DNA of 63,986 bases, filler included, from Basidiobolus ranarum (lineage: Eukaryota), in assembly GCA_040143965.1 (NCBI GenBank). It is 3 parts of 3 records of this genome, joined end to end, with 100 filler letters (N's around TTAATTAATTAA, not from the genome) between each part and the next. Parts side by side here need not be neighbours in the genome. Positions count along the whole stretch, not along the records: positions 1 to 23,071 come from JASJQH010000174.1; 2 more parts are not named here. One strand, given 5' to 3'. A program made the position numbers and the translations under genes. Below the pieces are notes generated by a model. It did no database searches and was not told the origin of the DNA. It saw only the letters and a program-made list of their open reading frames with translations. Of the stretch, positions 3,244 to 34,649 are shown one piece after another. Each line of letters opens with the position of its first letter. The first letter of the stretch is position 1.

Positions 3244-5688
3244 CTATGGAATATAGGTGTAATTGGTAAACCCAAGAGTGTCATCAGCACTGGTAGAGAA
3301 TATAGTATCCTGCTCTGGATGAAACAACGTAGAGAGTATCACTGAATCTATTAAGTATATTAGCGCAAGTCACCAATGCTAAGATGAAAATGTTAAATAC
3401 CATGGACAGGTACAGTCTGCGCACCCTTTGCCAGGTATCTTAGATCCCTAAAAAGAGTAAGTAATCTTACAACTTGAGAAAATTGAAGTTGAGAAAGAAT
3501 AACACACCAGATATGCATTGTCCCATCTTTATCTCCACACACCACCAAGTTCCCAGTGGAATCGAAAGAGGGCTTAACGGCTTTAGGCAGTAGCTGATGT
3601 TTTGCGAACCCAAAACGTTGTGCAGAAGGTTGCTTTGTCCGATAATCACATATATTGAGCTGATTGGATTTGGTTTCCAGACTAAAAATTCGACTAGGGT
3701 GAACACAAGTTCATTTGAATTGCTGAAATGACTGTTACCATGCAAGAAATAAGTTGCCATTTCGGGGGTTGGCTGTGACATCAATGACCTATGCCTCAAA
3801 ATTCTCAAGTCAGAAAAGAATGGAAAGATAGAACATACAGTCAATTATCACCTTTCCTGAGTATTGAAATTCGCTGACAACTGATACACCATTCATTGAA
3901 TAAGCTATAAGTTTTCCATCATCTGCACCTGATAAAAGAACACCTCGACCGGGGCTGTAATAAAGGCTATTTACAGAACCTACGTGATCGTGGTGAGCGA
4001 TAGTTAAAGACCGCAGCCTTGCATCTTCTGCATAGTCTTGAGGGCTCTCAAATCTCCACAGCCTCTATGTAAGAGAGAGCATCAGTGAGTGGGGCCTCTA
4101 CACTAAGAATATAAGCTGTACTTACGACGACACCGTCTCTGCCTCCCGAACCAAAGGTAAACTCCAATTGATTTTTTGCAACAGAAGCTATGGTCGAAAC
4201 CCCCTTAAGGTTATCCTCCGCATCAAAATGTTGAACTCTAATTAAAATCTAGGAAATAATTGAGCCTCATTCTCAAGGAAAAGGAGTAGTAAGGAATACC
4301 TTTTTCTTCTCAACAGAAACAAAATGAATGAAGGATAGATACGAGCGGCCTAAATCAAATTCTTCGTAGCCAACTGCAAGAATTGATGAGCTGACAAAAC
4401 ACAGATCCTGAGGCTTTTCTTGAAGTACATTTTGAGGAATGTGTGTTACCATTCTAACCACAAAACAACGGTATTAGTTTTTGATGAGGCAACCTTTTGC
4501 TCATGAGGTAGTCTTACTCTCTGGTAGCAGTGTTCCATAACTTGACTTCACTAGTCCATGCAAACGTCGTCTTATTATCATTGTAATGAAATATATAAAC
4601 GGAATCGTGCTTACCCATTTTCTGAGCTAAGTGTTGGTACATATGCAGTAAGTATAAATTAGGTATAAAAAAATCATAAAGTACTAACCAAACAGCAATA
4701 CAGCTCACTTCTCTGTGCTTATAGTCTGAAGCTCGTCCAAACGCTGTACTTCTCATTGGAGCTTCAAAAGAGTTGGATTCAAGCTGGATTTCGTCCACTT
4801 CGATGAACTGAAGGTCACTGGAAGATTATGATTTAATTCAAAATCCACTTGAGATTTAGCTCAAGATACTACCTTATATTTGTGATGGATGTATTGATTA
4901 GTGAGCTCTTATCTTCGCGTCCAGAATGTATGGCTCCGGAATCGGTTTCCTCTAACGAAAGTTTTGAGCTCGACGTCGATCTTTTTACGTTTTTTTGCGG
5001 GGTTTCGCTAGGTAAAGCTGAATTTCCAAGTTTGCAGTTATTCTTAGAAGTAGAGGTTACTGCATTTTGGACTTCTTTCTGAGTTGAACTTGAATTTAAG
5101 GCAGCTGACGTCAAAGCAATAGCGGGGGAATTTGTACCTTTTTTCAAATGATTACAAATAATATTCACCTTGTTCTCGAGATTTTGAGACATGCTATCTA
5201 GCTTCCTTATCTCTTTTTTCATCTGAAAGAGTAAATGCAAAACATTTTCAATATAAGTGTATAAAATAGTGACTTTCTCCTCTACAAAGAACCTATACCT
5301 CTGCAACTAATTGCTTCAGCTCCACTTGTAGTTGAATTGGGTCAGATTCTCCACCTCCATCCTCGATCTGAAGCTCTTCTTCTGGCCAGTAATCCGAAGA
5401 TTCAAGCTCAACCGCTTCTAAATTCGGTAACTCTCGTGAGGTTTTTGAAAATTTCGATTGTGGTTCCAAAGTTTCTTCTTCTTCTCCTTCGCTATCTGAA
5501 ACTATTACTGTTCCTTTACGTTTAGCTTTAGTCGTTGGTACTACTACTTCGGCATTAATCTGAGCTGTTTGATTGTTGATCGATCTTCCGAGAGGTGTCA
5601 ATGTTTGAGTAGCAGGCTTGTGCGTTTTAGATCTTGCCTCTGGCTCGGGTGGAATGAGATAAACCTTTTCTTTGGAACGACGTCGCAT
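3244..5688 (-). CDS. Multi-exon WD40-repeat protein with a low-complexity, charged N-terminus
   Basis: Minus-strand exon translations give WTSEVKLWNTAT, FTFGSGGRDGVV|RLWRF, HVGSVNSLYYSPGRGVLLSGADDGKLIAY, WDLRYL and LFHPEQDTIFSTSADDTLGFTNYTYIP* (stop 3244-3246). Exact exon boundaries were not fully resolved. Confidence 0.7.
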
Positions 5689-5866
5689 GAAGTTGAGTAA
5701 AATTGAAGAGTTGTGGTAGAATTTGTAAACGAGGCTTAGCCATCGTACACTAGATAATGGGATCAGGATTGAGTATACTAAATTACTTGAATCATCAATA
5801 ATATATTTAACAGTTCAGTGACCGAATCACCCAATCGCTGTCTGAAATTCATCACCTTTTTAGATA

Positions 5867-6853
5867 CAGGGTTTTAACCAAAAATTAGAAGATTGCAAAA
5901 AATAATTAGACAACCATAGAAAACCATTCTTTGCTTCTCGTCCATATTAAGTTTTGAAAAAGTATGTTTATCTTGAAGGACAGTGCGAACGCGATCAACA
6001 GATAGTTTGAAATTGCGCTTAGCTTGGGAAAGAGCAGTAGCGGGATCAGCATCAGCAAAGCTAACAGCAGCAACGCCTGCGACAACAACATCAGCAATAT
6101 TATCTTCATTAGTAACCGACTTTACTTCAGTAAGACCTTCCAGATGCTGAACTCCAGCATTTATTAACTCGAAAGGAATCGTATCTTCATTATTACAATA
6201 GTAGCTTTTTAGTGCCTTTTAAACACTGGCTTTCAGGAAGTGTCTTGCTTTCGTTTCAATTGCTTGCTGGTTTCTTGAGTATCGAAAAACAGACTTGTTT
6301 TGAGGAGTACTCGTTTCATGCATACAGTATAAAAGATCACCACGACCAGGATCGATAAGCACACACTTATCTGTAGTCTTAAGGATTTCATCTTTTGACA
6401 ACTTTTTAGCATAAGGAACACCATCATCAACAGCCTTCATTTTCTGGCGACCGCTTAAAGCACCTCTTCTGGTAGTGCTAAAGTTCTATTTGAGTATAGA
6501 CATACCGACTCCATCTATTTCAAGTCCCTTCAAACTTCATTGTCTTGGCATTTTGACTTTTAAGGGCTTTACAGTTTAGATTAACGACACTGCCCCAAAT
6601 ATCGACCTTGTTTCCAGTAAAATTGGATATGATCAATTGATTCAGAAACGAGATAGCTTAGTTAAAAAAGTTGGTTCTGTTTGATTCGCTTTATGACAAT
6701 ATAATGCATATTTCTACCAAACGTAAATTCCTCAATATATACGTCTAGTTTTACTGTTAACATTCGTCTGAATGCTTTTCTATGATTGTCTAATTTTAAT
6801 TTCAGCTTGTCTAATTATTTTTTGCAATCGTCTAATTTTAGATTCAAACCCTG
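5867..6853. mobile_element. Non-autonomous TIR DNA transposon (987 bp) carrying a Fanzor fragment
   Basis: The left end CAGGGTTTTAACCAAAAATTAGAAGATTGCAAAAAATAATTAGACAACCATAGAAAACCATTC (5867-5929) is the imperfect reverse complement of the right end (6770-6853, ending AAACCCTG). ATA lies immediately outside both ends (5864-5866, 6854-6856). Confidence 0.85.
5925..6630 (-). pseudogene. Degenerate Fanzor1 (TnpB-derived RNA-guided endonuclease) fragment including RuvC-I
   Basis: DIWGSVVNLNCKALK...KFEGT/[frameshift]LEIDGVGMSILK*...KLSKDEILKTTDKCVLIDPGRGDLLYCMHETST...FRYSRNQQAIETKARHF. It contains the DGVxxS and RuvC-I DPG motifs I recognise from zygomycete Fanzor1 proteins. One frameshift, two stops, and no RuvC-II, zinc finger or RuvC-III. 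Confidence 0.8.
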
Positions 6854-7052
6854 ATAAGCGCACCAGCCACTCATTCCACAGACGATGAGCTGATTTGGAA
6901 ATACCTCAGTATGGAAATAACCTATCAAATTAGGCCAAGATTTCATTCAAAAATATGCTTAGATGGGTGAATTTTACTTGCTTCATTGCTGACTAAAGTA
7001 TTCAAGATATTGTTGACCGAAAACAAACAAATACAAGGTAGCAACCACTACA

Positions 7053-8733
7053 CTAAGCTTGCTGTTGCAAATTATAGTAATGCTTCTCCGCCTGAGTTAT
7101 GGCAGTCATGTTGGACATCAACTTGGTCATTGTTTCTTCATGCTCCTTTTCTGGTACTGAGTCATAGACAATCCCTGCTCCTGCTTGCAAATAGGCTACA
7201 CCGTCCTTGAATACCATCGTACGAATGGAAATGCATGTATCTAGATCTCCAGAGTAACTGAAGTGGCCCACAGCACCCGCGTAAATACCACGTTTTTCTT
7301 TCTCTAACTCACCCACCAACTCGATAGCCCGAATTTTAGGTGCACCGGAAACAGTACCAGCTGGAAAAATGGATCGGAATGCGTCGAAGGGAGTTTGGTC
7401 CTCACGTAGTTCACCACTGACGTTGCTAACAATATGCATTACATGACTGTAACGCTCAATCTGCATTAAAGAATCCACTTTTACGGTCTCTGGGCGGCAT
7501 ACTCTATTGACATCATTGCGTCCAAGGTCAACTAACATAACATGCTCAGCAACCTCTTTTTCATCAGCTAATAGGTCAGCAGCCAAAGCATCATCTTCTT
7601 CTTGAGTCTTTCCACGTTTACGAGTACCAGCGATTGGATGAGTATAAACAATATTATTTTCAACTTTCACCAGCATTTCTGGGGAGGCACCCACTACATG
7701 GAAATCGTGGAAATCAAAGTAGAACATGTAAGGAGCTGGATTGACGGTACGAAGATGTCTATACGCGTTGAATGGGTGTAAAGTGGTAGGTCTGGCCAAT
7801 CTTTGTGAGGGAACCGCTTGGATAATATCCCCTTTAATGATATGCTCTTTCAGGTTTGTCACAAAATGCTCGTATCCTTCTTTGCCAACATTGGAGGTGT
7901 AACTTTGGTTCAACTTGATTGGGGGTTGCTCAGGTAATGGGATTGTGTCTTCATTCAATCGCTTCATTACCTCCGATATCTCGGCCCTAGCCTTACTATA
8001 ATGACCTTCTAATGAGTCAAGATTGTCGGCATCACACTTGATATGACTAACGATTTTAATTAAATGGTGAAGGTGATCGAAAATAACCATCGTGTCACAG
8101 AACAAAAAGATGCTTTCGGGAATTTCAAGTGTATCTTCCAAGTCTCTAGCTGTCCTAGGCTCGAAATATTTTATACAGTCATAAGAAATGTATCCGATTG
8201 CACCACCTAAAAGGAAACGAGTTAATACCTCAAGCACCAGAAGTGGATACTAGGAATAGAATTACCAGTGAAAGAAGGAAGTCCTGGAACCGAAATAAAC
8301 TTTGCGTTTTTAAGTTCATTCTCAACTGCAACTAAAGGATCTCCTTGAATCTTCTCTTTGTCACCGGTTTTAATGACCTTATGCGCATCTTTACAATGGA
8401 TAACGTTTAAACAAAGGCCGATATTTCGCAGGTAGAGTATATTACTTACCAAAACTAATGAAAGAATAACGTCCAATTTTCTCGCCACCAGTGACTGATT
8501 CTAACAAAAACGAATCAATACCGTCCCTTCTTAGCTTCAAGTAGGTGGATACTGGAGTAGACAAGTCAGCAGATAGAGCGTGGTAAACAGGGACGGTATT
8601 TCCTTTTCCTGAGGAAATCAGTTCCTTTACCTCCTCGTATGTAGGGGTGATATCAAGCTAAACATAGTCAATAGGAATGGTTAATATATCGGAGTTTCCT
8701 CAAAGTGAGAATGAAGTACGTTAATACCTGCAT
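7053..8733 (-). CDS. TRP2: Anthranilate synthase component I (multi-exon)
   Basis: [88 protein letters not shown]. The short 5' exons start with ATGCAG|GT at 8733. Confidence 0.95.
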
Positions 8734-23171: not shown

Positions 23172-24588
23172 TAATATGATGGCACTGTTTATCATCATCA
23201 TCATCAATTCTGTAAACGTACTACATCACCAGTATCAACCAGGTCCGAGCTTATGAAGGGCACCAAATATCCTCTATTTCATAACCATCTAATGCATCTC
23301 ACAAATGATCAAATTGTGGTGGATGAAGGATAGCATCGTTGACATAGCATGGGTAAAGCCTACAATTATACGCTCATCATGTAATAGCCATAAGATAATG
23401 AACTGTTATACTCTGCTATTGAATATGTACACTCTAGATGGAGATATGACACAGAAGCATGGAGACTTCAGTATTAGTCTCATTTAGAACGTTTAAAAAG
23501 CACTCACTGAAGGCACTATTCTTAACGCACACAATGACCCTAGGCTTACTTTATTGCAGCATGGCATTTACATCATCACTGTTGCGGAAACACCAAATAT
23601 TGAGTTTCCTATCAAGCAGTAAATTTCAACTCATTCTTGCACCTGACTGGGCAAATTTCGAGAAATATCTAAACCTGAACCATAGATTAATATCTCGTGG
23701 CAGAGAATGATTTTGTCAGTTTAGCAGTTAAAATATTAGAAAGCACTTCAACTGGTGCTCTCAATCCAATTACTTTTGCTTAGAATTTCTATTACCCAAT
23801 ATGATACTCAATTTAATATAGAGTACTCTAATATCACGTGAATGGTACTTCCCTCAAATTGTTCAAGTACCATGTTCATTTTGTATTAAGTAAATGATTG
23901 GTTATGAACTTAATAATTTTCATAAACTATTAACGCCCAACTCAGTTATTTATAGCACTTGTAGAGTGCTATTTCTAGTGTATAATAACCAAGCTAGCCT
24001 TTTATGGCAATCGCTGATCGCCCATTCAAAGAATAACGTGGATTTGCCACATTAAATTGAAGAGAATGCTGGTGAGTTTGAAGAGTAATGCTTATAGTAT
24101 AACGTATGTCTTTATCTCACACAATATCTACTGATGCCTAGGGATAATTTGTGCTACTATACTTCAAAGTAAGTAGCTTGTCCAGTACTTTTGAGTGTAT
24201 TCGCTTCATGATAAAATCACTGACGTGAGAATTCATTTATTTCAATCAATTAAAACTGGATCAGATTGGCCGATCATTGATTCTTCAAAATTATTAAGTG
24301 ATATTGGATTCACTTCTATAATGGCGTTGATGCTCTTGAGTGGCGCCAAACAAGAGGTGAGCGCCAATAAGAAGTTCAAAAAGGAAATTCCTGAGTGTGA
24401 ACAAACTCCATATTTTCAATCGAATGTTGTGTGGAGAGTAGAAGTTGGAGTGTATATATTGGTCAAGTAGTACCTGGGAATGACCATCTATATAAAGACC
24501 TAGTGCTTCTGAAAGACAGAAATCATCCATCAAGTACATAGAAGAAAACTCAGCTCCTTTCTTTTTATCCTACATCAAGAAACTCATT

Positions 24589-25656
24589 ATGAGAATCAGT
24601 ATCTATACACTTTTCCTTGCTGCCTGTGCTTCTACAGGCTTAGCTCAAGATAATGCCATCTCCGGTGATCTATATCCGGTCAATTCAAAGTGGACAAAGG
24701 AGTATGATCTCTCCAAGGTGCCAAATAAGCCATTGAGAGCTGTGGGTTCTGGAGTTTGTAATAACTCTAATTGTGGGCCTGATGATTGCGATAAATGTTT
24801 CGAATCTTGTGGTAATTGTCCTCTGAAAGAAGATGTCTATGGTTGCGAAGCTGGTAAATGGGCATTGACCTTTGACGATGGTCCTTCGGATTTTACCCCT
24901 CAACTTCTCGATATATTGGCTGCTGCCAAAGTCAAAGTAACCTTCTTGATGGTTGGATCCAACGTTGTCAAATACCCTGAGGTGGTCAAGAGAGCATTCG
25001 ACGAAGGACATCAAATCTCTCAACACACCTGGTCACACCCACACTTGATGAGTATCTCCAATGAACAGATCGTGGCTGAGCTTAGAGCTACTGAGGAGGC
25101 TATTTTTAATATCACCGGAGCTCGTACCGCTTTTGTTCGCCCACCTTATGGTGAGGCTGATGATCGTGTTAAAGGTGTCTTTAAGGCTATGGGATATCAC
25201 AATTTACTCTGGAATATGGACACGCTAGATTGGGATATTGTAGAAAAGAAGCAGAACCCTGATAAAATTCTTGACTCCTTTAAGAATGTTCTGGCTAAAG
25301 GTACAGATTTAAACCCTTTCAATAGCCCAGGTTTCATTTCTCTTCAACACGACCTTTACGTTGATACGGTAAAGCGTGTTCCTATGATTGAACAACTCTT
25401 GGCCCAAAACAACTTCCACTTTGTACTTGCCCATGATTGCATCAACACACAACCTTACCAAAATATCGTCGATAAGGAATCGTCATCCAAGACTTCAGCT
25501 TCCGTTGCACAAGAGTCAACCGCTAAAGCAGCCTCCAGTACTCCAAGCACTGGGGTAGCAGCGGCAGCCGCCGTATCTGGAGTATCAAATATCGAAAGGA
25601 CTACTGCGATCTTTGCGCTTGTATTGTTTGTCTCTACAGCCATACTTTCTTTTTAA
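24589..25656 (+). CDS. Chitin deacetylase (CE4/NodB), secreted, probable GPI anchor; copy 1
   Basis: Signal peptide, Cys-rich segment, TFDDGP, HTWSHPH, RPPYG, DTLDW, LQHD, Ser/Thr/Ala-rich tail and hydrophobic C-terminus. Confidence 0.95.
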   Translation: MRISIYTLFLAACASTGLAQDNAISGDLYPVNSKWTKEYDLSKVPNKPLRAVGSGVCNNSNCGPDDCDKCFESCGNCPLKEDVYGCEAGKWALTFDDGPSDFTPQLLDILAAAKVKVTFLMVGSNVVKYPEVVKRAFDEGHQISQHTWSHPHLMSISNEQIVAELRATEEAIFNITGARTAFVRPPYGEADDRVKGVFKAMGYHNLLWNMDTLDWDIVEKKQNPDKILDSFKNVLAKGTDLNPFNSPGFISLQHDLYVDTVKRVPMIEQLLAQNNFHFVLAHDCINTQPYQNIVDKESSSKTSASVAQESTAKAASSTPSTGVAAAAAVSGVSNIERTTAIFALVLFVSTAILSF

Positions 25657-26786
25657 ACGTTTCTTGAAAGAATTGATACCTAGTTTAAATCGCTATATCT
25701 ACTTAACTTTGGCTAATCTAGCTTGTATCTTATATATATCCGCGTTCTCATCCTTAATACAAAAACTTCCTTATATAGTTTTATCTAGAATCTAAACAGT
25801 ATCTTACTTTATATAATTAAGATACGCAATAAATCGACCAAAACTTGATGCTACTACGGCTTCTTATTCGACTAATATATAGGGATAAATAGAGAATCCC
25901 ACGCGTTCTTTCTATTACACCGATCTCATATTGAATCTTGAACTTTCATTGAGTGAAATGGAAAGTCTTTATTGTCACCACCAACAGGGTACATTTATAT
26001 CCAGGAGCATTCAACCTGGTGAATATGTTAGTTTTTCAAGATAAATTTCTTTCTAGAAGTGGCATTTCTCCCTTTCCCTCCAAGATGAATAACTATTGGT
26101 TGGCTGACTTAATGTTTTTGTGATAATCTTTGATCATATTTAGTCATCAACCTAAATATTTTTAGAAATTATGCTACCAATGCATGGCGCCTTTGAGTAA
26201 CCTCCCCATTAAGCAAATAAATGAAAATTTAAAGTAGTTCCTGTAATCAGAATTCAATCGCCGCTAAAGCTATAAATAATTCCCTTGTTCGGATAAATTT
26301 TAATGATTGTTGTAAATCTTTACTTGACCTAGATACACATTTACTTCTAGTACATTGGGCGTATATCTTTCCATCTAAAGGATTTACTTTTGGGAAAGAT
26401 CAGCCCAAACTGGGTGAAGAACTCTGAAAACTTGAGTGAATCTGACGATGCTTGGGAGTGCAGAACGTCACAATAACAGATGTCAATACAGGATTAACTG
26501 AGCATTACGCCTGTAATGGATATATCGGTGAAGATTATATATAAAAATTTTCCCAAATTATCTTGGAAGATCATAGCAAAAGTATAGGAAATATTTACTA
26601 TCGGTTTATATTTTCCTAAATAGATTTGGAACCAAAATATGGAGGTCTAGATGTTGATAGTCACATTCAAATAGTCTCTTGGAGATGACAAGAGAATGTA
26701 TATATAGACCAAAGGTAGAGTAGTGGAATCAGAGCTTCCTGAATCTACTGAACTTTGATAACTACCCTGTATTTTCTTGCCGAAAT

Positions 26787-27863
26787 ATGAAATTTACTCT
26801 GATTTTACTTGCAGTTGCTTGCGCTGCAAATAGCTTGGCTCAAGATGACTCCGATGGTTCACCCTACCCGGTTAACTCTGAATGGACGAAGCAATACGAC
26901 CTCTCTAAGGTTCCAAATAAGCCATTGAGAGCTGTTGGCTCCGGAGTTTGTAAAAATGCTGAATGTGGGCCTGAGGATTGTGATAAATGCTTTGAAAGTT
27001 GTGGTAACTGCCCTACGAAAGAAGACGTCTACGGTTGCGAAGCTGGTGAATGGGCATTGACCTTTGACGATGGTCCTTCAGAATTTACCACTCAGCTTCT
27101 CGATATCTTAGCTGCCGCCAAAGTCAAAGCCACCTTCTTGATGGTTGGATCCAACGTCGTCAAATACCCTGAGGTGGTCAAGAGAGCATTCGACGAAGGA
27201 CATCAAATCTCTCAACACACCTGGTCACACCCACACTTGATGAGTATCTCCAACGAACAGATCGTGGCTGAGCTACGAGCTACCGAAGAGGCTATTTTTA
27301 ATGTCACCGGAGCTCGTACCGCTTTCGTTCGCCCACCTTATGGTGAGGCTGATGATCGAGTCAAAGGTGTCTTTAAGGCTATGGGATATCACAATTTACT
27401 CTGGAATATGGACACGCTAGATTGGGATATTGTAGGAAAGAAGCAGAACCCAGACAAGATTCTTGATTCATTCAAGAATGCATTGACCAAAGATACCGGC
27501 TTGAACCCATTCAACAACCCTGGCTTCATCTCACTACAACATGATCTCTATGTAGAGACTGTGAAGCGTGTTCCTAAAATCGAAGAGCTTTTAGCCCAAC
27601 ATAACTTCCATTTTGTACTAGCTCATGACTGTATCAATGTATCACCCTATCAAAACGACCCTAACAGTAATTCAACTCAAACTTCGTCTTCCTCTAGCAC
27701 AAGTGTTGCCACTTCTACCCCTTCATCTATTAAGACACCTTCCACCTCACAGCCGGAACCCACATCCCATATTGCATCAAGCGCCTCTGGGATTAGTGAA
27801 TCCATTATACCTTTCTATCTATTTTTGGTTGCTATCCCCATTATGATCAATCTAACAATATAA
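26787..27863 (+). CDS. Chitin deacetylase (CE4/NodB); copy 2
   Basis: All five CE4 motifs intact; signal peptide; S/T-rich tail and hydrophobic end. Confidence 0.95.
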   Translation: MKFTLILLAVACAANSLAQDDSDGSPYPVNSEWTKQYDLSKVPNKPLRAVGSGVCKNAECGPEDCDKCFESCGNCPTKEDVYGCEAGEWALTFDDGPSEFTTQLLDILAAAKVKATFLMVGSNVVKYPEVVKRAFDEGHQISQHTWSHPHLMSISNEQIVAELRATEEAIFNVTGARTAFVRPPYGEADDRVKGVFKAMGYHNLLWNMDTLDWDIVGKKQNPDKILDSFKNALTKDTGLNPFNNPGFISLQHDLYVETVKRVPKIEELLAQHNFHFVLAHDCINVSPYQNDPNSNSTQTSSSSSTSVATSTPSSIKTPSTSQPEPTSHIASSASGISESIIPFYLFLVAIPIMINLTI

Positions 27864-28279
27864 ATGCTAGAATATATTATATTTCAATTTAATAAATAAA
27901 GTAGGGAGCATCTTGATATAGAATATTGGTGGGTAGATTGCATCTGGGAATGTATGTAACTCTAGATCTCATTTGTATTGAACACGTGGTAAAAAGTAAA
28001 TACGCACGCAGATGACGCGTATTATTGATGAAACTAGCATAGATATTGAACGAGCTCAATTATCGAATTATAGTGAATTGTTAAATATTTGTAATAAAGT
28101 TGAATGTGATTCATCAAAACTGGTTTTTAATATTCATTGTAAATCCGATCATTTACATTTAGGGTGGAACAATCAAGATTGTTTAATCGAATCTGGCATC
28201 ATGACATATATATCACAACACCACGCAAGATATAGCACAACATCGATCTAAATTAAAGTGACTGGCTTATTCTAATCTC

Positions 28280-29353
28280 ATGAAATTCTATCTTACTTCA
28301 CTTCTTTTAACCTCTTATGCTTCGAAGGTTCTGTCTCAAAGCAAGTCAAGTGAGGATTTGTTATACCCGGTAAACCCGGAATGGACTAGCCAGTATGATC
28401 TTTCTAATGTTCCAAATAAACCTTTACGACTCAGTGGCTCTGGATTATGTAAAAATGCTACTTGTGATGCCAGTGATTGTGATCGTTGCTACGAAAGTTG
28501 TGGTAATTGCCCTAGGAAAGAAGATATCTATGGTTGCGAAGCTGGTGAATGGGCCCTAACCTTTGATGACGGCCCATCTCCATATACCGTAGAGTTGCTA
28601 GATATCTTAGCTGCAGCTAATGTCAAAGTCACTTTTTTGATGGTTGGATCTAATGTTGTTAAATACCCTGAGATAGTCAAGAGAGCATTCGATGAAGGAC
28701 ATCAAATCTCTCAACACACCTGGTCACACCCACACTTGATGAGCATCTCTGATGAACAAATTGTGGCTGAACTTCGAGCCACAGAAGATGCTATATTCAA
28801 TATTACCGGAGCTCGTACCGCTTTTGTTCGTCCACCTTACGGTGAGGCTGACGATCGAGTCAAAGGGGTGTTTAAGGCTATGGGGTATTATAATTTACTT
28901 TGGAATATGGATACATTGGATTGGGATATCGTTGCCAAAAATCAAGATGCTGGAAAGATTATCGACTCCTTCGAGAATGCGTTAACTAAAGGCACAGGAT
29001 TAAATCCATTTAATGATCCTGGCTATATCTCTCTACAACATGATCTTTATGTTGAGACAGTGAAACGCGTTCCTAAAATCGAAGAGATTCTAGCCCAACA
29101 TAATTTTCACTTTGTCCTTGCCCATGATTGCATTAATGTTGCACCATATCAGAACACTCCTATCACAAATTCAATCCCATCAATTACCCCAATTAACCCT
29201 GAAATTGACACTCCTACTTCTGAACCCAATGAGGTGTCAGTAGCTCAAGGAAGTATACCTATTGAGGTTTCCTCCGATGCTGTCAGTGGAAGTACCATCT
29301 ACTTGAGCTTCTCTTTAGCCGCCACCGCCATTAGCATATTCTCATTACAATGA
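28280..29353 (+). CDS. Chitin deacetylase (CE4/NodB); copy 3
   Basis: All five CE4 motifs intact; Pro/Thr-rich tail and hydrophobic end. Confidence 0.95.
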   Translation: MKFYLTSLLLTSYASKVLSQSKSSEDLLYPVNPEWTSQYDLSNVPNKPLRLSGSGLCKNATCDASDCDRCYESCGNCPRKEDIYGCEAGEWALTFDDGPSPYTVELLDILAAANVKVTFLMVGSNVVKYPEIVKRAFDEGHQISQHTWSHPHLMSISDEQIVAELRATEDAIFNITGARTAFVRPPYGEADDRVKGVFKAMGYYNLLWNMDTLDWDIVAKNQDAGKIIDSFENALTKGTGLNPFNDPGYISLQHDLYVETVKRVPKIEEILAQHNFHFVLAHDCINVAPYQNTPITNSIPSITPINPEIDTPTSEPNEVSVAQGSIPIEVSSDAVSGSTIYLSFSLAATAISIFSLQ

Positions 29354-29814
29354 ATACTCCACACTTGATGCCATTCCAACGCTCTTTATAATAGATATCT
29401 TTTATGTTTCAATCAATGTAGAGACATTCCCATTCATACTGGCATCCAAGTTACAATCGTCATTTTCTTTCGGTTAAATTACCATTGGGGCGAAATAGAT
29501 GAACAATTTAAATCATAAAATCATTTTAAACGCCCATGATCGAATCCACCTTCAACCTGGAATATCTTTATCTCAAGTGATTATTAATTTGCGTTACAAA
29601 GTTAACCGTTAATTTGAAGTTCTTTCATTGGATGAAGTAGACAATACTCTTTTATATGGATAGGAAATTTCGGAAAACGTCAATCATATTTCTTAAAGAA
29701 GATACCTCGTGTGAATTGACTTGGTATGGTTCAAATTCAGTAAGTAGTGCTCCGATGTTCAGTATAAGTAGAAGTCAGTGAGTAACTTTGAAAAAAAATT
29801 ATTCATCTCTAAAC

Positions 29815-30897
29815 ATGAAGATTGTTCCATTTTTCTTAGCTGCTTGCATCTCCACAACTTTCGCTCAAGATGATGCCGTCTTGGGTAAACTTCACCCAGC
29901 TAAATCTGAATGGACGAAGCAATACGATCTCTCTAAGGTTCCAAATAAGCCATTGAGAGCTGTTGGCTCCGGAGTTTGTAAAGATACTAAATGTGGGCCT
30001 GAGGATTGTGATAAATGCTTTGAAAGTTGTGGTAACTGCCCTACGAAAGAAGACGTCTACGGTTGCGAAGCTGGTGAATGGGCATTGACCTTTGACGATG
30101 GTCCTTCAGAATTTACCACTCAGCTTCTCGATATCTTAGCTGCCGCCAAAGTCAAAGCCACCTTCTTGATGGTTGGATCCAACGTCGTCAAATACCCTGA
30201 GGTGGTCAAGAGAGCATTCGATGAAGGACATCAAATCTCTCAACACACCTGGTCACACCCACACTTGATGAGTATCTCTAACGAACAGATCGTGGCTGAG
30301 CTACGAGCTACCGAAGAGGCTATTTTTAATGTCACCGGAGCTCGTACCGCTTTCGTTCGCCCACCTTATGGTGAGGCTGATGATCGAGTCAAAGGTGTCT
30401 TTAAGGCTATGGGATATCACAATTTACTCTGGAATATGGACACGCTAGATTGGGATATTGTAGGAAAGAAGCAGAACCCAGACAAGATTCTTGATTCATT
30501 CAAGAATGCATTGACCAAAGATACCGGCTTGAACCCATTCAACAACCCTGGCTTCATCTCACTACAACATGATCTCTATGTAGAGACTGTGAAGCGTGTT
30601 CCTAAAATCGAAGAGCTTTTAGCCCAACATAACTTCCATTTTGTACTAGCTCATGACTGTATCAATGTATCACCCTATAAAAACGCCTCAAACAGCAGTA
30701 CGATCCAAACTGTATCATCTGCTGTCTCTCCAACATCTACTATCCAAGCATCTAGTAGCAGTCAAGCGGCAACTCCAAAGATTTCCACAGATACCCAAGG
30801 TACAGCTAATGTGGAGGCTGCATCTAGAGGATCAAGTATTCAATTCTCAAGTGGCTTATTCGCATTATGCTTAATCGCACTGACATCATCAGTGTAG
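29815..30897 (+). CDS. Chitin deacetylase (CE4/NodB); copy 4
   Basis: ATG 29815 (MKIVPFFLAAC); core almost identical to copy 2. Confidence 0.95.
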   Translation: MKIVPFFLAACISTTFAQDDAVLGKLHPAKSEWTKQYDLSKVPNKPLRAVGSGVCKDTKCGPEDCDKCFESCGNCPTKEDVYGCEAGEWALTFDDGPSEFTTQLLDILAAAKVKATFLMVGSNVVKYPEVVKRAFDEGHQISQHTWSHPHLMSISNEQIVAELRATEEAIFNVTGARTAFVRPPYGEADDRVKGVFKAMGYHNLLWNMDTLDWDIVGKKQNPDKILDSFKNALTKDTGLNPFNNPGFISLQHDLYVETVKRVPKIEELLAQHNFHFVLAHDCINVSPYKNASNSSTIQTVSSAVSPTSTIQASSSSQAATPKISTDTQGTANVEAASRGSSIQFSSGLFALCLIALTSSV

Positions 30898-31680
30898 AAA
30901 AGATCAGTTTATCTTTAGGATTAGACATTCGAAAGCTAAAGTATGTTAAGATGACGACAGTAATTTATTTTATATTCAATCACTCGATCAATGATTATTA
31001 AAAGATTAATGTTAAAACGAGGAAATCCCCTCTAGTCTCATTTGCTCTCACAGTTTCGTTTTAATACAGAAGATATACTTGGTGCAGGATTCTGTTTCTG
31101 CTATTTCGAATCACTGCTACTAGTTTAATTGCAAATAGGAGCTGATTTTCATATAGGTCTCCCCTTCGATCGGGTAAAATATTGTCGATCTTTGACATCT
31201 GGTATATTTTCCACATATGGCAATCAATAGAGGCGTACTTTCCGAATTATCTCCATTACCGAGATTAAATGATGGATGAACAAGCTGGTTTGCCTTGTCA
31301 AAGTAACTTGGAAAGCTCCGATTTGCATGAGCATTTAATCAAATTGAAAAAAGTGAAATGGACTCTCCCCCCTCCCTCAAAAAAGGAGTAGCAGTGCCTG
31401 ACATGATGTATGGTCAATAGTGTCCCTTTATTTACCTCTCTTCATATTGCATAAACCAATAATTCTCGGAGTACCCCTCCATTTGACTTTCATCTTTAGT
31501 TCGTGATAAAGTGAATCTATGTAAACCAAGCGTTAATATGAAATGCAAGTAATGAAAAAGTTTCTCTTGGTCCAAAATCCCCTTGATAGAACCACTGAGA
31601 ATAAAAGCAGTGAAATGTGGATGTAATTCAACATTGAATTTACATTTCTTTCTTTGCTTGTTCAAATCATTACTTTTAGA

Positions 31681-32739
31681 ATGAAATTCTTCACTATGAG
31701 ATGGACTTCTCTCTCCCTGGGATTCTCTTTGTTATCTGGAATGGTTCAAGCTCAAGAGGCCTCTTCTGGTGAACTGGCTAAAGTAAATCCAGAATGGATG
31801 AGGCAATACGATTTCTCTAAAGTTCCCAATACTGCACCCAAGAAAGTGGGTTCGGGAACTTGCGCCAATAGTCCTTGCGGTTCTGGTGACTGTGATAAAT
31901 GTTGGGAAAGTTGTGGTAATTGTGCATTACCCGATGACGTTTATGGTTGCTCAGCTGGTAAATGGGCTTTATCCTTTGATGATGGACCATCCAATTATAC
32001 AATGCAACTTCTAGATATTTTGGCAGCTGCTAAAGTCAAAGCTACTTTTCTCATGATCGGATCTCAAGTAATTCAATTTCCAGATGCTGTCAAAAGAGCT
32101 TTTAATGAAGGACATATGATCGCATCTCATTCTTGGTCCCATCCCCACTTGATGTCACTTACAAACGATCAGATTGTGGCCGAGGTAAAAACTACCGAAG
32201 ATGCGATCGTCAATATTACTGGCGTTAAACCAGCATTCATTCGACCACCGTATGGTGAAGCAGATGATCGGGTAAAGGCTATATTTAGAGCGATGGGTTA
32301 TCATAATCTTCTATGGAATATGGATACTTTGGATTGGGATATCGTGGCTAAAAAGGAGAGTCCAAGCTTGATATTAGATTCATTCCGGTCTGCTTTAGCC
32401 AATGGTACCTCATTGAACGCTCACAATGACTCCGGATTTATCTCATTACAACATGATATTTATATTGATACTGTAAAGGAAGTTCCTTCTATTGAGCAAC
32501 TGCTACTAGCACAGAACTTCAAATTCGTACTTGCTCATGAATGCATTAACGCTCCACCGTATCAGGGGAACATCACTATCACAAATACTACCTCGAATGT
32601 CAGCGCAAAAGCTACCTCCTCGGCTACAACATCAGCCACAGCCGCTGCACTACCGGTAACCTCCGAGTCTAATAGTAATGCTATTCATCGAGTTCAATTA
32701 GCCATTACTTCAATCATATTTTGTGCATTTTTATTATGA
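31681..32739 (+). CDS. Chitin deacetylase (CE4/NodB); copy 5 (more divergent)
   Basis: SFDDGP, HSWSHPH, RPPYG, DTLDW, LQHD; signal peptide and GPI-like tail; start at 31681 or 31696. Confidence 0.93.
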   Translation: MKFFTMRWTSLSLGFSLLSGMVQAQEASSGELAKVNPEWMRQYDFSKVPNTAPKKVGSGTCANSPCGSGDCDKCWESCGNCALPDDVYGCSAGKWALSFDDGPSNYTMQLLDILAAAKVKATFLMIGSQVIQFPDAVKRAFNEGHMIASHSWSHPHLMSLTNDQIVAEVKTTEDAIVNITGVKPAFIRPPYGEADDRVKAIFRAMGYHNLLWNMDTLDWDIVAKKESPSLILDSFRSALANGTSLNAHNDSGFISLQHDIYIDTVKEVPSIEQLLLAQNFKFVLAHECINAPPYQGNITITNTTSNVSAKATSSATTSATAAALPVTSESNSNAIHRVQLAITSIIFCAFLL

Positions 32740-33197
32740 GTGATTACTTGAGATTGAATCTTATTGTAACTTAATGCCATGACACCACATATCTAATAAA
32801 TTTCCATATTTCTTGGACCATCAATCACTAGTTACGTGAGAAGCAGTTAGTATGTTATCTTAGTTCAGAAGTCGCTTTAAATTTAGAATAGGAATAATGC
32901 ATAGATGATACATGGAGATGCTCTTCCATAAAGTATATCACAGATATCCCTATCTTTTGCTTGAAATATTACAAAAGAGGTAAGTAATGATTCCTATTTA
33001 TTCTCGATAATTATCGAAATTCTGAGATACAAAAGCGTTGAGATACGAAATCATTCTAGTAGTTTCGGTTTAGTGAAGTGATATTAATGAAGGGGAGAGT
33101 TTTTCTTGGATCATGGAGTGAATGGTAGATGATGTATGAGTAAAGAAAGTTCCTTATCTACGGTATCATGGTATAGTGAAATGGTGATATTGTAAAT

Positions 33198-33971
33198 TTA
33201 TGCATAAAGTCCACCATCTTGTAAACAACGTGGAACAGTCGCCACTCTGTATCCATTATCTCTAACCTTCTTGAGAATCCCTCTAACCGCTTTAACAGTG
33301 CTACCGTGGATATCATGTTGTAAGGATATGTAGTTATTACTACTGGGGGAGTTTTCACTCAAGACGTTATAGGAATCGATGGTTTTTTGAGTACTGAGGG
33401 TTTGCCAATCTAAAGTATCCAGATTCCAGTAGATCACTTTGTATCCGAGTCTTTTCAACACCGCAAGTACTCGATCATCACATTCTCCGTAAGGACAACG
33501 CATATATCTGGGTCGAACACCAATGGCCCTATGAATGGCATCAGCAGACTTTCTCATCTCTTGTTCGATACCTTCAGCACTTAATTGATTAAGATTCGCA
33601 TGGGTGTGAGTATGAGAGGCGATGTGATGTCCACGTTGGTACATATCACGTACAATGCCTGGATATCTGTCTACATCTAAAATTGAAAATTCATTAGTTG
33701 CTGAAAACTTTAACGTTATTCTCCGTATGGTGGGATAATTACTTTCTCCAATCAAAAAGAAGGTCACTCGTATGTTGCCGAGAATGTTGAGAAGTTCTTC
33801 GGTAAATTGTCCAGGTCCATCGTCGAATGTGACCGCTACCACCCCGTCAACAGAGCACTCGCTGATTTGAACACCAAGTGGAGCTGCACGTTTCCTAAGG
33901 CTGGTAGATGTAACTTGTGTAATAGCAAGGATTCCAAGAGCCAGAGTGGAGATGTTGGTAATAAAACGCAT
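33198..33971 (-). CDS. Secreted CE4 polysaccharide/chitin deacetylase without GPI tail; 66-nt intron 33677-33742
   Basis: Signal peptide plus Kex2-like RKR site, TFDDGP, HTHTH, RCPYG, DTLDW, LQHD; splicing restores GENVDRYP. Confidence 0.92.
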   Translation of the reverse strand: MRFITNISTLALGILAITQVTSTSLRKRAAPLGVQISECSVDGVVAVTFDDGPGQFTEELLNILGNIRVTFFLIGESNYPTIRRITLKFSATNEFSILDVDRYPGIVRDMYQRGHHIASHTHTHANLNQLSAEGIEQEMRKSADAIHRAIGVRPRYMRCPYGECDDRVLAVLKRLGYKVIYWNLDTLDWQTLSTQKTIDSYNVLSENSPSSNNYISLQHDIHGSTVKAVRGILKKVRDNGYRVATVPRCLQDGGLYA

Positions 33972-34649
33972 GGTAAAGGTGCTTACAACGAGAAAGAGTA
34001 ACCTGAGAAGATCAATAGAGGAACGATGACTCTGCTTATAAGATTTACAACTCTTCAGTCTATTTATACATACACTGGAAATGTACGCCAGTAAAGGTAA
34101 TTAAGGAGATTGGGTTAAGCATCACTCGCATGGACACGGGCTTGCATATTTAACAATAGCTTAAACTCTATATGCACATTTAATGTACGCTGCGATGGTT
34201 GTCCCTTAGTACACAAGCAAGTCATTTGAATACCGTCTGATTATGACTCTTCTTGGAATGATATTCATACCATATTGAAACTAGGGAAGTTTGACTACAG
34301 GTGGAAGAACAAACCTTAATCCCATTGTTACTTCATGGTATTAGCATAATATTGATTTTATTTACTCACAATAAGAACCACTAAATAGTTTTCATATCTT
34401 ACTATTGATTGTTGAATAAAGGGCACTCGGACTTCATCTTATGTGTTCATCAAATAGTCCTCACAATTGATTTCCTTCATAAATAACTGAGAAATAATGA
34501 CTGGTTCAGGCTGGAATTGACTTTGAAAAATATTCATTTATACACACGAAAAATTCGATGGCAGAAAAGCTACATGAGCCAGGAAACCATGCAGATGAAC
34601 TCACAGATATTGTCAACTACCCCCACCTCCTAGAGGAGAACTTCAGAAT

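Follow-up and report, generated by a model that had tools for sequence, protein, structure and literature searches.

We analyzed a 63,986-base stretch of the Basidiobolus ranarum genome (assembly GCA_040143965.1; three parts of three records joined end to end, hereafter the window) and focused on a 987-bp element at positions 5867–6853 that carries a remnant of a gene for Fanzor1, a eukaryotic RNA-guided nuclease. The element lies between two host genes, ~200 bp downstream of the stop codon of an anthranilate synthase gene (7053–8237, minus strand) and ~180 bp upstream of the ATG of the next gene (5293–5688). Its termini read CAGGG...CCCTG, as a first-pass annotation made from the sequence alone had recognized, and belong to two inverted repeat arms of 47 nt (5867–5913 and 6807–6853, with 893 nt between them) that are 91% complementary, matching at 43 of 47 positions in an alignment without gaps. 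Direct reading of the junctions (...GATA/CAGGG and CCCTG/ATAAG) revealed a perfect 3-bp direct repeat, ATA, at 5864–5866 on the left and 6854–6856 on the right, a candidate target-site duplication that contains TA. The 23-nt inner core of the repeat occurs at exactly two sites in the window, one per arm, and blastn of the element against the whole window returned the element itself and the arm pair as the sole matches. A chance origin of the inverted repeat was ruled out by shuffling: neither the 23-nt core nor the 28-nt terminus of the transposon ROr-3 (see below) was recovered in any of 100 shuffled sequences.

Both arms are described here in the orientation of the Fanzor1 remnant, which is encoded on the minus strand, with 6807–6853 as the 5′ end and 5867–5913 as the 3′ end. 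The two ends are not equally elaborate. At the 5′ end, a 42-nt stretch of repeat sequence has been duplicated in tandem (6771–6804 and 6813–6846, 74% alike), and as a result this end holds three GTCTAATT motifs (within 6770–6853) compared with two at the other. Five AGACRW motifs are found within 120 nt of the 5′ terminus, a count of at least five being reached in one of 6,388 windows of 120 nt, compared with a single intact motif (5908) at the 3′ end. Three of the five (6741, 6764 and 6786) lie in a 5′ subterminal non-coding region (6655–6806, minus strand), which also includes part of the tandem duplication and for which no protein homology was found.

The Fanzor1 remnant and its losses

Between these ends, the minus strand from 6654 to 5937 preserves the remains of a Fanzor1 gene in colinear order. 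The remnant accounts for 718 of the 987 bp, in line with the earlier description of a frame filling most of the element, and extends beyond the KSYYCNNE peptide to ~5937, near the inner edge of the repeat. Searching the peptide pieces against the PDB supported the Fanzor assignment: the piece at 6222–6485 matched Fanzor1 of Parasitella parasitica (PpFz1, 9cf0_P; E = 4.3e-13) and of Spizellomyces punctatus (SpuFz1, 8gkh_P; E = 2.4e-5), and the upstream piece matched the preceding residues of 9cf0 colinearly (E = 0.023). The structures of PpFz1 are available as PDB entries 9cf0–9cf3 (Xu et al., Cell 2024, PMC11423790). Using tblastn, we placed residues 117–432 of the closest long relative, P0005, colinearly on 6654–5937, in two frames and with a 37-residue gap and two stops, and PpFz1 residues 399–521 (the end of WED and RuvC-I) on 6609–6237 at 44–57% identity. 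P0005 is 89% identical to P0159, the 761-residue hypothetical protein BCV72DRAFT_303884 of Rhizopus microsporus, which itself matches PpFz1 across REC, WED, RuvC and TNB (E = 1.4e-120); the remnant is colinear with both proteins over its full length, and this holds also for the insertion that separates RuvC-I from RuvC-II.

The remnant, which runs from the end of WED through RuvC-I and some way into the RuvC insertion, consists of three minus-strand pieces. The first (6523–6654; tblastn to P0005 117–163 and PpFz1 399–428) comprises WED β-strands, includes ...NFTGNKVDIWGSVVNLNCKALKSQNAKTMKFEGT and has a frame of its own. The second (6222–6485) contains the end of WED, a linker and RuvC-I (CVLIDPGRGDLLYCMHETS), and shares 60% identity with P0005 over 85 residues around RuvC-I. 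Its LIDPG aspartate (codon 6351–6353) aligned with the aspartate of SpuFz1 VIDPN, which, by count along the Table S3 sequence of Xu et al., is D383, one of the three catalytic residues given there for SpuFz1 (D383, E541 and D606; PMC11423790); the DPG had thus been correctly identified as the RuvC-I motif. The third piece (5937–6218; tblastn to P0005 164–432 and to P0159), which starts with KALKSYYCNNE, is a shortened version of the RuvC-I/RuvC-II insertion and matched P0005 and P0159 by BLASTP at E = 6e-5 and 8e-4, respectively. The tail at 5879–6218 had no PDB match at E ≤ 10 and none among 417 word-index candidates, and was placed only via these two proteins. PpFz1 also carries an insertion at this place in RuvC, its FRI domain; the two insertions resemble each other only weakly, with a BLASTP E of 0.48 in the colinear region, and we regard the tail at 5937–6218 as a positional equivalent of FRI and do not claim homology.

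The gene is broken in several ways. Its first part (6523–6654) and the remainder (5937–6524) are in different frames, separated by a 1-nt frameshift at ~6520–6526, and NFTGNKVDIWGSVVNLN...KFEGT (6520–6636) consequently lies in a frame other than that of ...EIDGVGMSILK. The first-pass annotation had joined these peptides into one interrupted minus-strand frame; all of them are on the minus strand, as stated there, but they occupy two frames. Alignment identified two in-frame stop codons, a TAG at 6486–6488 (minus strand), a position occupied by Q or R in paralogues and relatives, and a TAA at 6219–6221 (minus strand), which adjoins a 37-residue in-frame deletion after ARHF relative to P0159. 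Also relative to P0159, the window copy is without ~240 N-terminal residues (~400 in PpFz1 numbering) and its low-complexity stretch has been shortened.

At the other end of the gene, the remnant stops at ...DEKQRMV, and the frame then runs directly into the terminal repeat. In tblastn searches with full-length relatives, homology ended at P0005 residue 432, equivalent to residue ~530 of 761 in P0159. A set of 37 long relatives produced 44 tblastn matches, every one of them within 6000–6999, and the C-terminal parts of these proteins had no tblastn match anywhere in the window; we conclude that the copy has no RuvC-II, TNB zinc finger or RuvC-III. All three are kept in P0159 and P0005; among 19 long relatives, seven matched PF07282 (Cas12f1-like TNB), each below the 26.3-bit cut-off. 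Of the features expected of Fanzor1, the window copy therefore retains the RuvC-I aspartate and lacks the RuvC-II glutamate, the zinc-ribbon TNB, the RuvC-III aspartate and an intact open reading frame (ORF). The loss of these domains had been proposed before as the reason for a lack of function, and the end of homology at residue 432 agrees with that proposal. The copy is a family remnant rather than a functional Fanzor1 and is unable to make a nuclease.

Little space remains for a guide RNA. Fanzor guide RNAs are described as overlapping the right inverted repeat and reaching downstream of the ORF (Jiang et al., PMC10530073), and just ~70 nt are left here 3′ of the coding remnant. Neither the 3′ end (z = −0.46) nor the other end (z = −0.71) folded better than shuffled sequences, and an Rfam search of both ends returned a chance-level match to SraB alone (23 bits versus a gathering score of 130 bits). 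By its position, the omega RNA scaffold would have been lost with the deleted sequence. PpFz1 is an active 849-residue nuclease with a listed omega RNA of 71 nt and an ATN target-adjacent motif (PMC11423790), whereas for the fragment in the window no guide RNA could be detected.

In a separate comparison of published sequences, the consensus of another element, ROr-1 (PMC3627910), showed a close match by eye to the PpFz1 omega RNA scaffold (CCACCAA.GTTATCGCTTTGGTCA.TTAAT.CAGGTA; PMC11423790, Table S3), located ~170 nt inside the 3′ terminus and upstream of the 90-bp repeat. If this match is true, the guide portion in that Mariner-type element would be internal sequence and not flanking DNA.

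Relatives and paralogues

At a cut-off of E ≤ 1e-3, a search of 1.84 billion representative proteins returned 224 relatives, of which 39 reached E ≤ 1e-10 and one reached E ≤ 1e-30. Among 20 of the top matches whose names were looked up, six were from Rhizopus, five from B. ranarum, four from other Mucorales (two Pilaira, one Thamnidium, one Helicostylum) and one from Coemansia, the organism field being blank for the remaining four. A further search with P0005 gave 36 proteins of 325–1035 residues at E ≤ 1e-10; the named ones, query aside, were all from Mucorales with the exception of one Coemansia protein, and none was from Basidiobolus. No long or intact Basidiobolus Fanzor1 copy was seen in this protein search, which works via shared short words and is weak evidence on the point.

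Three B. ranarum paralogues, K7432_013284, K7432_012670 and K7432_016025, are decayed as well and share 83–86% protein identity. Comparison with the paralogues found the frameshift and the TAG stop in the window copy alone. Two paralogous fragments, P0004 and P0136, end at ...FDKS, adjoining the deletion and stop of the window copy, and a deletion near this point may be common to the paralogues.

ROr-3-like termini and competing explanations

The closest described counterpart of the element ends is ROr-3 of Rhizopus oryzae RA 99-880, a 2,862-bp family of 16 copies with 133-bp inverted repeats, a TA target-site duplication, a 720-residue Fanzor and, in its published description, no transposase (Bao & Jurka 2013, Mob DNA 4:12, PMC3627910). 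The first 28 nt of ROr-3 match 6826–6853 (minus strand), the last 28 nt of the 5′ arm, with three mismatches (25/28), the common terminus being CAG(T/G)GTTT..AATCTAAAAT.AGACGATT. This 28-nt motif was compared with a search tool; agreement over a longer stretch of the repeat (~40 of 48 aligned columns, ~83%) and the like motifs around RuvC-I in the ROr-3 protein and the window remnant were judged by eye. Both elements have long inverted repeats built of repeated AGAC(G/A) motifs, Fanzor1 as the sole gene in an equal gene-to-end orientation, and TA within the target. They differ in length (987 versus 2,862 bp), in repeat size (47 nt, or ~63/84 nt with the imperfect inner part, versus 133 bp), in host (Basidiobolus versus a Mucorales fungus) and in the long insertion after RuvC-I, which is present in the window remnant and not in the ROr-3 protein. 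The element bears ROr-3-like termini. Its CAG(T/G)G start and TA-containing target fit Tc1/mariner-type ends, of which such termini are typical.

We conclude that 5867–6853 is very probably a dead, non-autonomous deletion derivative of a ROr-3-type cut-and-paste DNA transposon. A deletion derivative of a Fanzor-carrying transposon had already been suspected in the first-pass annotation, whose main points are all supported, and the element has indeed kept both ends and, between them, only the broken middle third of Fanzor1. The parent would have been a transposon of at least ~2.9 kb that carried Fanzor1 as its only gene, ended in long inverted repeats and duplicated TA-containing targets. Two blocks, one to each side of RuvC-I, would then have been lost from its interior: the 5′ part of the gene (~400 codons), and everything between a point midway through the RuvC insertion and the 3′ repeat. 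Faulty gap repair, the usual way in which such elements lose their interior, may have been the route. With its ends sufficiently preserved for movement in trans, the shortened element would have inserted between the two host genes and decayed, acquiring the frameshift, the two stop codons and the 37-codon deletion as later hits. Its sole remaining activity would be passive, as a substrate for a Tc1/mariner-type transposase that is made elsewhere, binds the repeats and AGACRW sub-repeats and moves the element. The first-pass annotation had anticipated longer copies with a complete Fanzor and a transposase; a parent of the ROr-3 type, as described in PMC3627910, holds Fanzor alone.

Several observations weigh against this explanation. 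Since the window contains no transposase, the one mobilizing the element can only be inferred. Pfam searches with the three pieces gave nothing beyond two chance-level matches on a 38-residue piece, and the family is seen at the DNA level in this one copy, its other members being seen as proteins alone. The protein is closest to the R. microsporus Fanzor1 with the long RuvC insertion, yet the ends are closest to ROr-3. Finally, the flanks read ATA, 3 bp in length, in contrast to the plain TA of ROr-3, although a single insertion is compared here and ATA could be either TA with a chance neighboring base or a 3-bp duplication. The latter option would suit ends from a superfamily with 3-bp duplications (CACTA/EnSpm-CMC or PIF/Harbinger) that had captured a Fanzor fragment, the more so as a TAN duplication of 3 bp is on record for the Fanzor1 family PBl-1 (PMC3627910) and ATA becomes TAT in Fanzor orientation. 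One insertion cannot separate these two possibilities, but the 25/28 match of the terminus to ROr-3, which duplicates TA, the common sub-repeat motif and a Fanzor orientation consistent with the ROr-3 layout make such a capture improbable. An active counterpart of the proposed derivative, namely a still-mobile family resembling miniature inverted-repeat transposable elements, copied by a transposase acting in trans and with a young insertion at this locus, would fit the 91% likeness of the arms, the perfect flanking repeat and the retention of CpG dinucleotides (observed/expected 0.85 in the element versus a window mean of 0.68, rank 275 of 315 from the lowest, unlike relics in the window at 0.0–0.3); the shared ...FDKS end point of P0004 and P0136 would likewise hint at a common deletion. 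We consider it rather unlikely, given that paralogues just 83–86% identical in protein imply copies that are not recent, that the frameshift and TAG stop belong to this copy alone and that the 3′ end has been reduced to one intact AGACRW.

The presence of an NCBI gene model at the locus (K7432_004811; P0001, a hypothetical protein of 163 residues with one intron, at 5867–6440) raises the alternative of a real host gene, either domesticated from Fanzor or unrelated to it. The model is the best protein match to the element and is identical to the window translation on either side of the predicted intron, so that the window holds either this locus or an identical copy. What this "intron" excises, however, is VFRYSRNQQAIETKARHF together with the TAA stop, and in alignments with PpFz1, SpuFz1 and P0005 the VFRYSRNQQAIETKARHF stretch corresponds residue by residue to Fanzor1 coding sequence; the C-terminus of the model, FYGCLIIFCNLLIFG, is translated terminal repeat. 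Pfam searches with P0001–P0003 found nothing meaningful, K7432_004811 itself belonging to no Pfam family, and one of the three catalytic residues is present. A genuine host gene is accordingly highly improbable. Since its intron aligns with Fanzor coding sequence, K7432_004811 is an annotation artefact, a transposon relic to which a false intron has been assigned, and K7432_013284, K7432_012670 and K7432_016025 are probably artefacts of the same kind.

Origin of the family and significance

The Basidiobolus family to which the relic belongs could have been acquired horizontally, either from a Mucorales fungus or from a donor common to both, although we hold this only tentatively and do not consider it the probable outcome. 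Such a transfer would fit the ~83% identity, by eye, of the ends to those of R. oryzae ROr-3, the R. microsporus Fanzor1 as nearest long protein relative (60% identity) and the long insertion that the R. microsporus relative also has at the FRI place. Parasitella and Rhizopus were the only genera in which Xu et al. report finding the FRI domain (PMC11423790). We built a tree from an 88-column alignment of the RuvC-I region with 82–83 rows, keeping 82 of 158 proteins and using 81 plus the window copy; P0001, from the same locus, and matches covering fewer than 65 query residues were left out. The tree was weakly resolved (46 of 77 inner branches unresolved), with the window copy in no starred clade. 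It grouped the window copy with P0004 of B. ranarum and the Rhizopus-like P0005 (Shimodaira–Hasegawa-like approximate likelihood ratio support 85), inside a 34-row group with a support of 90 that also contained Rhizopus, Pilaira, Thamnidium, Helicostylum and two other B. ranarum fragments. B. ranarum fragments occupied two or more positions among the Mucorales sequences, with Coemansia placed in the opposite half, a pattern that would also fit a transfer. The tree cannot settle the origin.

The genes of the window are of ordinary fungal kinds. Beyond the element and the anthranilate synthase gene, it contains genes for an inorganic pyrophosphatase, a thaumatin-family protein and cyclins, as well as a copia relic. 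Six polysaccharide deacetylase genes (PF01522, chitin-deacetylase-like; each with E between 1e-32 and 1e-38) are clustered at 24496–34100, all but one of them, which is on the minus strand, lying on the plus strand. The lowest CpG observed/expected ratios in the window (0.0–0.3) were found at 45000–46600 and 53200–54800, the former containing the copia-type relic, in which an ORF at 45524–45988 (plus strand) matches the GAG-pre-integrase family PF13976 (E = 3e-10). CpG decay, as the mark of an old silenced repeat, was considered for the Fanzor1 element as well and rejected, as the element keeps its CpGs.

A full-text literature search found no paper on Fanzor and Basidiobolus together; the supplements of other Fanzor surveys, which may list Basidiobolus, were outside its scope. 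Taken alone, another dead copy carries little weight, as the transposon family was described in 2013 and the nuclease characterized in 2023–2024; what sets the relic apart is solely its likeness, across phyla, to elements of Mucorales. Its analysis nevertheless corrects the annotation of the locus, where K7432_004811 represents a relic with a false intron and no gene. It also supplies both ends and the target site of a Basidiobolus version of the ROr-3 family, which may serve as handles for finding intact copies and their guide RNA. The element further adds a data point on the movement of Fanzor1 transposons between distant fungal lineages, and, if the proposed horizontal transfer is true, FRI-bearing Fanzor1 transposons would cross fungal phyla.

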